The notes below the pieces were generated by a model. The model was not told where the DNA came from. It saw only the letters and a list, made by a program, of their open reading frames with translations, and made no database searches. A DNA stretch of 44,878 nucleotides from a virus (lineage: Duplodnaviria; Caudoviricetes). Where the stretch lies: IMG/VR virus record IMGVR_UViG_3300022173_000058, positions 1-44,878 of that record; one strand, written 5' to 3'. The position numbers were made by a program, and so were the translations under genes. Shown here in pieces: positions 24,919-28,396 of this stretch; position 1 is the first letter of the stretch; every line of letters starts with the position of its first letter.

Positions 24919-25026
24919 TCACCACCCGCAATATAAATAAATTGATACGCCCGGGCATTCGGTAGCCTTACCGTAAAGAATTGCCGCCGCCAGAACTAAC
25001 ACAAAACCTAAAGCAAACCATTTCAT
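24919..25026 (-). CDS. 35-aa protein: signal peptide or TM anchor plus a Cys-pair peptide (not in the ORF track)
   Basis: MKWFALGFVLVLAAAILYGKATECPGVSIYLYCGW; GAGG RBS; ATGA-coupled upstream and 1 nt before the next start. Confidence 0.6.
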   Translation of the reverse strand: MKWFALGFVLVLAAAILYGKATECPGVSIYLYCGW

Positions 25027-25184
25027 ATGCCGCCTCTCTGTCTGCGCTCTTTGCGCGATCTAGCCTTGTCGCCCTTAGATTTACGGGCATCACAACCATA
25101 ACCATAAAGATGGGCTTGTTGTTTTCTAGGCTTTGTAGGCCTATACATTCCATCTATATATGGACCGCATGCAACTCCAAACAT
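25023..25184 (-). CDS. 53-aa basic protein with an Arg-rich C-terminus (not in the ORF track)
   Basis: MFGVACGPYIDGMYRPTKPRKQQAHLYGYGCDARKSKGDKARSRKERRQRGGI; GAGGTG RBS. Confidence 0.6.
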   Translation of the reverse strand: MFGVACGPYIDGMYRPTKPRKQQAHLYGYGCDARKSKGDKARSRKERRQRGGI

Positions 25185-25443: not shown

Positions 25444-25528
25444 TTGGGTTCACCCATATCTCTAGAAAATTCGCCGCATTATATTCTCATTTGTGCAATG
25501 TCGCACAACGTACATAGAGGAAATAATC

Positions 25529-26401
25529 ATGGCTTTTGTACAAGATACTCCAAGCGGTTTAAATTTTTTAGGTGGATCATCCGATAGCGGCCTTGGTGGC
25601 GCGGGACTCATCGCACTATTGGCAGCTACTGGCGCTTTAGGCAATAACCGCCGAAACGAAGAGAGTTGTATTCCCGCTCAACTGAATACTGTTGCAGACG
25701 GCATTAATCACAATATCAACACTTCAATGATAGGCCTGACAAATCAGTTAAATGCCGGTTTCGGCGGTCAGCGTGATTTGGATTTAATGCAGAAGCTCGG
25801 CAACATCGAAGGCGATATCTGGAAAGCCGAAGGCGAAGTGCAGCTTGCGGTTGCCGGTTCCACTGCTTCACTAACTAATGCGATTTCACAAGGCACTCTT
25901 AGCAATCTGGCCGGTCAAGCTGCTATCAACAAAAATATTACTGATGGCACTGCCGCTGTATTAGCTAGCAATTGTGGCATTAAAGAAGCTGTTGCAGCTT
26001 ATGGCGTGGCGAATCTTACCGCGACTAAGGACGCTCAGTATGCGATTACTACCGCAGTCCGTGACGATGGCGATAAAACTCGAGCCAAAATTGATTTCTA
26101 CCATGACCAGGATATGCAGCGTAAGTTGACTGTTGCTGATGGCATTATTGCCGAACGCAATGCAGCTCTGCGTGGTCGCGAGTCTGAAATTAATATCACT
26201 AACACAAACACCGCTACAGCTCAGCAATTCCAGGTTCAAGGCCAGCAACAACAACAATTGCAAATTTTGGCCAACTTGGCGGCTGAAATTCGTAATTTAG
26301 CTGGCGATATCCAAGCTGTGCGCCAGGGTCAAGTTGTATTTAACTCTGGGACCATGGCCGGTAGCGCTACACAGGCTGCTGCAAACACCAAAGTGGCATA
26401 G
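25529..26401 (+). CDS. Conserved phage protein with an N-terminal Gly-rich hydrophobic segment and a long Ala/Gln/Asn-rich coiled coil (moron)
   Basis: GAGG RBS before ATG 25529. The DGDKTRA.I and EINITNTNTATAQQ motifs are recalled from uncharacterised phage proteins. Opposite strand to its neighbours. Confidence 0.7.
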   Translation: MAFVQDTPSGLNFLGGSSDSGLGGAGLIALLAATGALGNNRRNEESCIPAQLNTVADGINHNINTSMIGLTNQLNAGFGGQRDLDLMQKLGNIEGDIWKAEGEVQLAVAGSTASLTNAISQGTLSNLAGQAAINKNITDGTAAVLASNCGIKEAVAAYGVANLTATKDAQYAITTAVRDDGDKTRAKIDFYHDQDMQRKLTVADGIIAERNAALRGRESEINITNTNTATAQQFQVQGQQQQQLQILANLAAEIRNLAGDIQAVRQGQVVFNSGTMAGSATQAAANTKVA

Positions 26402-26590
26402 GTGGCTATTATGCATCGTATTTGTGCCTACATTGATGACAATATGGTTTTGCATTTGTTTCCACGAAACCCACTGGAAGCTATGGGCCTGAAATATTTA
26501 GGCAAAGAACTGGCTACACACGGCCTGTCTTTGATAAGTATTGAAGATGCAGATGCTTACGCTAAGTTAATGGAAAAAGATGATGAGTGA
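26402..26590 (+). CDS. Hypothetical protein, second gene of the plus-strand moron
   Basis: Starts immediately after the upstream stop and is followed by a terminator. Confidence 0.55.
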   Translation: MAIMHRICAYIDDNMVLHLFPRNPLEAMGLKYLGKELATHGLSLISIEDADAYAKLMEKDDE

Positions 26591-26879: not shown

Positions 26880-26905
26880 CACTCCATAACATTAAATAAA
26901 AAAGC
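26880..26905. repeat. Direct repeat copy 1 (RBS/U-tract module)
   Basis: CACTCCATAACATTAAATAAAAAAGC; the 15-nt core is identical to 27128-27142. Confidence 0.7.
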
Positions 26906-27115: not shown

Positions 27116-27142
27116 CACTCCTTAGTTATTAAATAAAAAAGC
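27116..27142. repeat. Direct repeat copy 2
   Basis: CACTCCTTAGTTATTAAATAAAAAAGC. Confidence 0.7.
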
Positions 27143-27156
27143 CCTATTTCTAGGGC
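27135..27156 (-). terminator. Intrinsic terminator closing the ncRNA array
   Basis: Minus strand GCCCTA-GAAA-TAGGGC-TTTTTT. Confidence 0.8.
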
Positions 27157-27176
27157 AAGCGCTCTCGGAATTAGGC

Positions 27177-27243
27177 GACCGTCTTTCCGATCTGTCATTA
27201 GCGCACTCGCCAATCGATGAGCTCAAGATCGCCCAGAGCACGG
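27177..27243 (-). ncRNA. C4-like antisense RNA
   Basis: GTGCTC/GAGTGC-closed stem with a CUUG-loop hairpin, followed by TAATGACA-GATCG-GAAAGA-CGGTC. This resembles the TGACAGCCGGAAAGACGGC signature I recall for phage C4-type RNAs; no covariance model was run. Confidence 0.55.
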
Positions 27244-27271
27244 CATTGGCCTTTGTGCCTTTCGGCGAATA

Positions 27272-27350
27272 TGGACAAGGGGAACGGACTCGAACCGCTC
27301 AGCCAGCAAAATTGCCTAGGTAGTTGCTGGTTGTGGCCTAACACCCCTCA
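27272..27350 (-). ncRNA. tRNA-like RNA lacking a D-stem, with encoded CCA
   Basis: Acceptor TGAGGGG/CCCCTTG, discriminator T, then CCA. T-arm AGCGG-TTCGAGT-CCGTT. An 11-nt unpaired D region and a CCAGCAA/TTGCTGG stem with no canonical 7-nt anticodon loop. Confidence 0.65.
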
Positions 27351-27355
27351 TAGTT

Positions 27356-27722
27356 GCTCCCTGTTGCCAAGGAGCGGTGAAACATGCTGACCTTCCGTCA
27401 TAGGGGGTCAAAGCCCCCAAGAGTACCGGATCAGCAAGCGATTACGTCGCCACTCGTAAATATGCACAGGTTTCTGCTGTGCTCAGTAAAGATGTTGTGA
27501 GTGCCGCCTCTGCCGTACCTAACTGAAAAAGGTACAGGATTGCACAGTGAGATTTCGGCCATCGCAACAAGTGCTTACGGCACCAGCGGCTTTGATGTGT
27601 GCTCATTACCATGCTGTGTTGCGTACAGCCTGAAGAACTCTCGCTAACTCAATCAGTGGACTAGCACGTCATGGATGCTCACTCGCCAAGAGTTTTTCAG
27701 GCTGCCGCCTCTTTCGAAGCGG
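27356..27722 (-). ncRNA. Tandem structured non-coding RNA elements of unknown family
   Basis: Consecutive hairpins and multibranch stems, several with GNRA loops; no ORF of 60 aa or more. Confidence 0.55.
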
Positions 27723-27734
27723 TTCACGTTTAAA

Positions 27735-27929
27735 TTAAAACTTAGCTATTCTTTTGCCAAGAATTTTAGAATATTCATCCATTGCATTTAATTGGTCTAT
27801 TAAATAAATTCTTTCGTCTTCATCGCATAATACAAAAAAATCTTCGCTCTCTTGGAAAATAACAAGCTTTTGGCGCTTTTCATCAAGCTGCACTTTCTCA
27901 TCAATAACTCTCTGTTGGTGCGGCTTCAT
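27735..27929 (-). CDS. crAss001_48 / T4 DenB.1-like two-helix protein (candidate anti-defence sponge)
   Basis: MKPHQQRVIDEK.QLDEK..KL..F...Q..AM..YS.IL..RIAKF family motif. Confidence 0.7.
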   Translation of the reverse strand: MKPHQQRVIDEKVQLDEKRQKLVIFQESEDFFVLCDEDERIYLIDQLNAMDEYSKILGKRIAKF

Positions 27930-27930
27930 C

Positions 27931-28086
27931 TCACTTCCCCTTAATCATGATGATCTTTGCCTTACCCTGCAAAACTAAGTTGAATTTTTCATCAAGCTCT
28001 TTAGTGATGTAAGGTTTGAATTTAACTAGACCTGACTTTGTTCGTTCGTACCGGTCTTTGTTTATTTCTGCGCGACTTTTTGGCAT
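27931..28086 (-). CDS. 51-aa RHH-like DNA-binding microprotein (not in the ORF track)
   Basis: MPKSRAEINKDRYERTKSGLVKFKPYITKELDEKFNLVLQGKAKIIMIKGK; abuts both neighbours. Confidence 0.55.
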   Translation of the reverse strand: MPKSRAEINKDRYERTKSGLVKFKPYITKELDEKFNLVLQGKAKIIMIKGK

Positions 28087-28299
28087 TTACGCTGCCTTGT
28101 TGCGAGCTTTGTTAGCGGCACGACGAGCGCGAGCAACACCGCTGAAAGTGCGTGGAGTTTTACCGCGACCCTTGCCGCGACTTTGATATGATGGCATTGC
28201 GGCAACACGACCTTGGCGATCTGCAAAACTCATTGACGCATCTGACATGATTGCACTGATTGCAGCGAACATTGCGATTGAGCGAGAAAAATGTTTCAT
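28087..28299 (-). CDS. Basic small protein with an Arg/Lys-rich C-terminus
   Basis: YQSRGKGRG...GVARARRAANKARNK; AAGGA RBS. Confidence 0.65.
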   Translation of the reverse strand: MKHFSRSIAMFAAISAIMSDASMSFADRQGRVAAMPSYQSRGKGRGKTPRTFSGVARARRAANKARNKAA

Positions 28300-28367: not shown

Positions 28368-28396
28368 ATATTAATACCGTATTAACACCGTGTCAA
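28368..28396 (-). promoter_or_regulatory. Sigma70 promoter with tandem 11-bp operator repeats
   Basis: TTGACA-17-TAATAT on the minus strand; TATTAATACCG and TATTAACACCG at 28369-28390. Confidence 0.75.

Follow-up and report, generated by a model that had tools for sequence, protein, structure and literature searches.

The minus strand of a 44.9-kb phage record carries a 79-nt element which, judged by comparison with related sequences, is a real and structurally conserved tRNA mimic that occupies an exchangeable slot within non-coding phage sequence; its function is a candidate only. Comparison of sequences reveals the fold, the slot and how varied its occupants are, that they are gained and lost, and that the anticodon arm is missing. 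The reading preferred here, at a probability of roughly 0.4, is that of an accessory, non-decoding tRNA mimic which would be excised by RNase P and 3' trimming and would serve as a decoy for defence enzymes that read the acceptor end.

Fold of the element

The stretch of DNA analysed (the window) is the 44.9-kb virus record at its full length. The element is encoded by the minus strand, its 5' end at 27350 and its 3' end at 27272 (Table 1); a sequence-only reading made earlier had given no strand. The helices listed in that reading were recovered: 27350–27344 pairs with 27282–27276 in a 7-bp acceptor (U-G, G-U, A-U and four G-C pairs), the discriminator U, the CCA and a canonical T-arm with a 5-bp stem and the loop UUCGAGU are in place, and the 7-bp central stem bears the 14-nt loop that had been quoted. 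The third acceptor pair is A3-U70, in agreement with the stated lack of a G3-U70 pair, and the neighbouring wobble is G2-U71; together with U1-G72 it makes the two pairs at the start of the stem G-U in type. The A at 27351 could pair with the discriminator U to give an 8-bp acceptor. A plus-strand reading was rejected, though the central hairpin pairs better there, on the acceptor wobbles, the T-loop, the CCA and the terminator, all of which indicate the minus strand.

Folded in isolation, the acceptor, central and T helices form with probabilities near 0.9 per pair, save for the two terminal acceptor pairs. The canonical tRNA features present are the 7-bp acceptor, the 5-bp T-arm with a UUCRA loop and the N-CCA end; neither a canonical D stem of 3–4 bp (best 2 of 4 pairs) nor a 5-bp anticodon stem with a 7-nt loop, U33 and a purine at 37 was found in the element. 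The central arm of the window element is not a canonical anticodon arm, and two further pairs possible at its base (18-51 and 19-50) would extend it to the T-arm. The D region had been described as an unpaired, GG-containing 11-mer. The 11 nt are there, following positions 8–9 in a 13-nt linker, but are probably paired. A 2-bp mini-hairpin, giving a four-way junction overall, is suggested by the folding models because the MFE fold and the twin element in locus L297 both pair 8-17 and 9-16; both pairs are altered on both sides in the twin. The two alternatives for the D region are not told apart by folding energy (−19.7 against −20.1 kcal/mol, 0.4 kcal/mol apart).

A strict descriptor, which demands within 60–100 nt an acceptor of 7 bp, a single discriminator, a T-stem of 5 bp with a UUCRA loop, and CCA, had a single match in the window, the element itself, and none in 100 dinucleotide shuffles. 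The folding z-score of the element alone was unremarkable (−0.11). When 50–100 nt of flank were included the predicted acceptor pairing dropped to 0–0.13, an upstream segment outcompeting the acceptor in its own flanks by 1.6–4.1 kcal/mol relative to the predicted optimum. The same collapse occurred in 7 of 8 elements tested, and it says little about the window element because an intact Tyr-like tRNA in locus L086 collapses too (0.04–0.1).

Table 1. Positions in the window of the tRNA-like element and of the features around it.
Feature	Position	Strand	Remark
tRNA-like module, 79 nt: acceptor, mini D hairpin, long central arm, T-arm, U-CCA	27272..27350	-	
Acceptor 5' strand, positions 1-7	27344..27350	-	
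Acceptor 3' strand with discriminator U (27275) and encoded CCA (27274-27272)	27272..27282	-	
D-replacement segment: predicted 2-bp mini-hairpin 8-17, 9-16; 6-nt loop with GG at 13-14	27334..27343	-	
Central arm: 7-bp core 27330-27324 with 27309-27303, 14-nt loop	27300..27333	-	
T-arm, 5 bp, loop UUCGAGU	27283..27299	-	pair probabilities 0.8-0.98 with or without flanks
Structured non-coding region hosting the module, about 600 nt	27131..27730	-	z -2.97, 0/20 shuffles
Conserved 5' hairpin, then at once a long hairpin; opens the non-coding region	27626..27722	-	
Terminator-like hairpin with T-run, closes the region	27131..27156	-	stem changes compensated in L243
Upstream block with hairpin, 28 nt	27356..27383	-	identical in L243 directly before the slot occupant
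Conserved trailer, about 20 nt, GAAA-capped hairpin	27251..27271	-	marks the slot in related phages
Sigma-70-like promoter, 10/12, candidate transcript start	28368..28396	-	consensus match only
Three small ORFs between promoter and RNA region	27735..28299	-	

The surrounding non-coding region

The window carries P22-like head and tail genes, a terminase, NinG, NinB, an endolysin and an anti-repressor, and the nearest cultured terminases are those of Pseudomonas phages (58% identity). No RNA gene was found in the window by ARAGORN or Rfam. A pseudo or undetermined tRNA had been expected from ARAGORN; it called no tRNA, but it also gave no call of any kind on the window, and the 208 calls obtained across the window at a lowered threshold were dismissed as noise. 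No integrase family was found among the 71 window ORFs scanned, and an attP copy of a host tRNA 3' end was rejected on this ground and on the presence of the 5' acceptor strand.

The element lies in an undescribed, modular structured RNA region which spans 220–750 nt in the phages compared, has shuffled internal modules and is without an Rfam match. Its homolog in L243 (330–1035) is colinear over the whole length, and single modules recur in L005, L082 and L217. The hexamers of the promoter are repeated upstream in L082. The three small ORFs encode an Arg-rich protein of 70 aa, one of 51 aa, with homologs upstream of the RNA in L082, L217 and L276, and one of 64 aa (Pfam crAss001_48). We infer one transcript of about 1.25 kb from promoter to terminator, in which the RNA modules would lie towards the 3' end. 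Among the sequencing runs listed, none of RNA contained the sequence, and one DNA contig covered 27435–27593 only.

None of 20 shuffles folds as well as the region taken whole. Between L243 and the window, a comparison of two sequences only, both partners are altered in 19 of the 115 consensus pairs. Both results would suit an element that is one domain of an uncut, ornate RNA of 600–750 nt, and phage tRNAs do occur in the linker of GOLLD according to the accessible part of bioRxiv 2024.12.08.627333. Such an RNA is nevertheless very improbable: the region matched no GOLLD, ROOL or other Rfam model, the modules are shuffled, only about 220 nt remain in L272/L276, and nearly all predicted helices are local.

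Blastn of the window region gave no match among 50,697 phage records and none in cultured phages and plasmids, and the element alone returned only matches with an E of 4. With L190, L051, L005 and L297 as queries there was no match, or generic short tRNA matches. A literature search found no paper describing this locus. No copy of the trailer motif was found in the searched part of the PMC10690425 supplements, a catalogue which may contain it elsewhere.

Several further features of the locus were noted. The Arg-rich ORF (window 28087–28299, minus strand; L217 1954–2106) stands directly behind the promoter. Hairpins capped by GAAA and GAAAGA follow downstream, and in this setting the ORF could encode an RNA-binding protein like N; it matched only unnamed Atlas clusters below 0.9 and no family. 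The 5' double hairpin of the region may resemble put-type antiterminator RNAs. A second variable slot (window 27470–27560, minus strand) consists of a stem closed by conserved ends, the 5' strand of which could also pair upstream; in L082 it encloses a tRNA-like element (L082a), and different hairpins take that place in L005 (745–815), L243 and the window. Facing the RNA region is a pair of ORFs on the plus strand (25493–26590), one Gln/Ala-rich of 302 aa and one of 62 aa, which has homologs downstream of the RNA in L217, L243 and L276 and is without a Pfam match. An exact 15-nt direct repeat (26891–26905 and 27128–27142) flanks an ORF of 67 aa that follows the terminator; since L243 is without the stretch between the copies, sequence has presumably been inserted or deleted at the repeat. 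Differing small ORFs with a common basic peptide tail sit downstream of the RNA region (window 25023–25184, L082 1550–1783, L005 about 1590–1760).

An exchangeable slot in related phages

The first tRNA-like elements seen before a trailer of the window type were those of the terminase relatives L005 and L051. A trailer scan with CCA in the pattern gave 8 loci, 5 of them homologous, and scans of metagenomes and genomes, which gave 82 and at least 80 loci, added three new homologs, all with CCA, besides the window. The scan of viral records without CCA in the pattern gave 24 loci with 25 matches, of which 11 were judged homologous by a longer trailer and shared flanks. Among the genome matches listed, none of 80 was preceded by CCA, and prophage copies may exist outside that list; by eye, most metagenome and genome matches share a recurrent context that looks coding. 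The upstream hairpin, used as a scan pattern, yielded no homologs among 32 loci.

Fifteen homologous trailer copies were obtained. Eleven are preceded by a tRNA-like top half, mostly of unrelated sequence (the window, L243, L190, L217, L082b, L083, L051, L086, L005b, L294 and L297a), and four are empty (L283, L285, L286 and a second copy in L297), so that the trailer also occurs without a tRNA-like element. Nine of the occupants end in CCA, one in CAA and one in CUA, and two other look-alikes are without CCA. An acceptor and T-arm descriptor that ignores the CCA letters fitted 8 of the 15 homologous copies compared with 1 of 129 unrelated exact matches to the motif (Fisher p 1.5e-8), with near misses in L217, L083 and L297a. 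When the eight CCA-ended occupants were folded whole, the acceptor formed without constraints. Several occupants have 8-bp acceptors.

The slot-bearing phages are, to judge by their genes, mosaic relatives. A terminase is common to L005, L051 and L283 (59–86%) and small neighbouring ORFs to L082, L217 and L243, while L086 is a 43.7-kb record without a terminase match. In L283 and L286 the upstream hairpin runs directly into the trailer with no insert, and in L297, where the upstream flank is about 89% identical to these two, a 79-nt look-alike stands between the flanks. L272/L276, a close relative of L217, has the flanking genes in common and lacks the whole middle, about 220 nt lying between the 5' hairpins and the terminator. 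The module therefore appears to be accessory and not needed to mature its flanks, because the slot is empty in L283/L286 and in L272/L276. Two look-alikes are present per locus in L005, L082 and L297.

These observations bear on the possibility that the element is a processing mark acting in cis, like a t-element, whose cutting by RNase P and 3' nucleases would separate and stabilise the flanking modules while the released piece does nothing. Only the parts read by processing enzymes are kept, most occupants begin at a U-G junction after a U/A-rich leader, the element has conserved modules of the long structured RNA on either side, and imperfect CCA ends are tolerated, all of which would be expected of such a mark. 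Close relatives with the same flanks nevertheless do without it, some loci have two, and a cut site needs neither unrelated acceptors nor the exact architecture shared by the window and its twin. A function of the product is favoured over one of the cut because relatives do without the element, because there can be two per locus and because the acceptors differ at every position; a mark in cis is thus regarded as doubtful.

Conservation among the look-alikes

The 11 occupants and three elements from elsewhere in these regions (L082a, L005a and L297b) make up 14 look-alikes. Acceptor pairs are formed in 97 of their 98 cells, compared with 49% when strands were swapped, with 4–6 pair types at each position, and T-stems are complete in 12 of the 14; there is some circularity in these figures, since the stems themselves served to delimit the elements. 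A canonical anticodon arm is present in three (L086 GUA, L297a CGC and L217 GGA). Five have a full 4-bp D stem (L082a, L051, L005a, L294 and L297b) and none of these has a canonical anticodon arm, so the loss is concentrated in the anticodon arm. Four of the five score 35–50 bits as Rfam tRNA, and only these four look-alikes scored at all.

The sequence-only reading had named covariation as a check, and related occupants do carry compensated changes. L082b and L190 (about 78% identity) have 43 of 44 cells paired and 6 of 22 pairs altered on both sides, four of which belong to the central arm; the pairing of these two elements, scored on the structure of one of them, was reached in 5 of 500 shuffles. 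The window element and L297a, the two sequences on which this subtype rests, have identical segment lengths (7/10/34/17/7/1/3) with 23 of 79 letters identical (29%). Among the 20 model pairs both partners differ in 12 and one partner in 2; 4 pairs are unchanged, 2 cannot form in one of the sequences, and 15 pairs are common to independent MFE folds. When the middle 44 nt were shuffled, the observed pairing arose in 782 and 190 of 200,000 cases and the overlap of the MFE folds in 15 of 2,000. The long arm of L297a ends in an anticodon-shaped 7-nt loop with U33, and this element lacks CCA; the claimed absence of an anticodon loop accordingly describes the window copy but not its twin.

In L051 (686–795), which has a U discriminator, a hairpin is inserted into the anticodon arm. 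The insert pairs with a loop-like stretch that contains GCA, much as though it were masking a cysteine anticodon. Palindromes at the central-arm tip were rejected as a dimerisation signal (1 of 10 elements below p 0.05), as were hammerhead-like words downstream, in which the core G of the consensus is missing by eye.

The slot of L086 (1922–2003) contains an apparently intact Tyr-type tRNA with a GUA loop, G1-C72, A73 and a long variable arm, which was missed by ARAGORN and Rfam. Its elbow is altered, the T-loop beginning UGC and the D-loop being without GG. Homologs of 75–80% identity, none of them annotated, are present in the tRNA regions of Caulobacter and Brevundimonas phages (L278, about 1488–1575, Caulobacter phage CcrColossus; L279, Brevundimonas phage Marchewka), and the stems of this GUA family are compensated across distant phages. 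In the homolog in L083 (2041–2430, minus strand) a 129-aa ORF for a PDDEXK_5 nuclease (E 2.8e-11) replaces the anticodon arm; there is one T-stem mismatch, and no intron core was seen by eye. The slot is not reserved for non-decoders, since L086 has an intact-looking tRNA and L297a a 7-nt loop with U33. It draws on odd tRNAs, of which some may decode or simply be in decay.

The occupants might on this evidence be relics of a tRNA cluster which lost their anticodon arms, for example to attack by homing endonucleases, and which persist under weak selection until deleted. The L086 tRNA, the L083 homolog with its nuclease ORF and T-stem mismatch, the loss of the slot in several relatives and the two G-U-type pairs that start the window acceptor would be natural outcomes of such a history. 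Neutral decay should, however, break acceptor and T stems, and the acceptors are intact at 97 of 98 pairs, a count that is partly circular; compensated changes also reach into central arms that are not those of tRNAs. A normal tRNA at this position in relatives, with non-compensated decay, had been set beforehand as the sign of a pseudogene, and ARAGORN called no tRNA in any of these loci, missing all 14 look-alikes. Since no canonical tRNA was called there and 11 of the 14 are without a normal anticodon arm, simple decay is unlikely, and relics are rated as rather improbable. These comparisons mark the element as a tRNA mimic, neither a chance fold nor simply a decayed tRNA, and partly support the interpretation given in the sequence-only reading. 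Phage RNAs of this kind are likely to be under-annotated, because ARAGORN misses all 14 and Rfam scores only 4.

Proposed function

In the preferred reading of an excised decoy, transcription would run from the upstream promoter through the three small ORFs to the terminator, host RNase P would cleave 12–13 bp from the T-loop, and 3'-trimming enzymes would leave a small, CCA-ended RNA. U1-G72, G2-U71 and U73 presumably match no standard identity set, being neither alanine nor glycine, and cysteine identity needs its anticodon; the product is probably uncharged because its acceptor identity fits no standard set. It would titrate toxSAS/CapRel-like or MenT-like toxins, the specificity of which would lie in the acceptor stem. 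MenT toxins reportedly extend acceptor stems, and because toxSAS and MenT act on acceptor ends an abundant uncharged mimic could titrate them.

An acceptor, T-arm and RCCA suffice for bacterial RNase P, which measures about 12 bp from the T-loop (PMC11143913, part available); excision is likely if the RNA folds as predicted, because these are what RNase P needs. In the available part of bioRxiv 2024.07.05.602228, toxSAS binds CCA in a conserved groove and reads pairs 1, 2, 4 and 5, the reading of the acceptor uses a variable region, and specificity varies. Published cases of tRNA counter-defence supply a functional tRNA: changes to the anticodon or stem-loop abolished rescue in one (PMC11555353), and the second likewise needed a functional tRNA (PMC13096335), as far as the accessible sections of both papers go. 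The imperfect ends (CAA and CUA), the intact tRNA of L086 and the cost of forming the acceptor in its own flanks all speak against an excised decoy. The earlier suggestion of a decoy for anticodon nucleases fits poorly, because no anticodon loop is on offer, and a decoy for acceptor-end readers fits better.

A more far-reaching form, considered unlikely, is a hypervariable decoy cassette: remodelled tRNA top halves would be swapped in a fixed slot of an accessory non-coding transcript, each acceptor identity being matched to a tRNA-end-targeting toxin of the host. If this were true, the 79-nt four-way junction of the window and L297 would represent a minimal tRNA-mimic fold of a new kind, and the locus an RNA-only counter-defence system. 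Known phage tRNA counter-defence replaces destroyed tRNAs, and a non-decoding mimic with a changing acceptor would be a different strategy. Such a mimic is easy to test against acceptor-reading toxins and would offer a handle on the long-open function of RNAs like T4 RNA C.

Comparison with known RNAs

The geometry of the element matches exactly that of the tRNA-like domain of tmRNA (E. coli ssrA, locus L281), a likeness already remarked on in the sequence-only reading. The two have in common a 7-bp acceptor, a 13-nt linker with GG at 13–14 and no D stem, a long central helix, a 3-nt linker before the T-arm, and N-CCA. The differences are that the element is without alanine identity (A3-U70 and U73), an mRNA-like domain and a match to RF00023, and that tmRNA has an open D loop whereas the window element is probably a closed four-way junction. 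Identity with tmRNA was rejected on alanine identity, the tag frame, which is absent as had been stated, and the model score.

A derived D-armless tRNA or mimic of the tmRNA domain, engaging SmpB, EF-Tu, RelA or the ribosome, would account for the exact agreement in linker length, GG position and 3-nt linker and for the U33-bearing loop of L297a, and D-armless tRNAs work in mitochondria (PMC7609411, in the part accessible). There is, however, no G3-U70, A73, tag frame or phage SmpB, no match to the tmRNA model at E up to 10, and the sequences flanking the elbow differ from those of tmRNA; the window loop is moreover 14 nt long and the twin lacks CCA. The proposed SmpB mimicry keeps its geometric basis but is weakly supported, because alanine identity, tag frame, tmRNA score and phage SmpB are all absent, and a role of this kind in translation is judged highly unlikely.

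Irregular tRNA polycistrons and 8/4 allo-tRNAs occur near toxin-antitoxin systems and some are apparently not translational (Mukai et al. 2017, PMC5389517). As far as the accessible part of that study goes, they resemble the present RNAs in being odd tRNA-like RNAs in clusters, several slot occupants having 8-bp acceptors too, and they are mostly acidobacterial cloverleaves which keep their anticodons. The window element is instead 7/5 and without a D arm or anticodon loop. YrlA is a non-coding RNA with a tRNA-like module, which in M. smegmatis is cut by RNase P and gains CCA; it adjoins Ro60, and its acceptor stem is closed between the T and D arms (PMC4201824, accessible part). A YrlA Y RNA was rejected, as no TROVE/Ro60 gene was found in this genome (the control was positive in 2 of 14 genomes) and no Rfam match was obtained.

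The closest known RNA is T4 RNA C (rnaC, species 1 RNA; NC_000866.4 70908–71046), for which the accessible parts of PMC3014915 and PMC9697503 give no known role. It is not homologous: blastn of the window region and of the element gave no significant match in phages, and the window has no tRNA cluster, being without tRNA genes. T4 RNA C is 139 nt long, has an imperfect acceptor followed in the genome by CAA, and belongs to a cluster of eight real tRNAs, whereas the window element has 79 nt, an encoded CCA and a locus without canonical tRNAs, in a slot whose occupant changes. In both RNAs long hairpins replace the D and anticodon arms, and a canonical T-arm stands beside the acceptor-like end.
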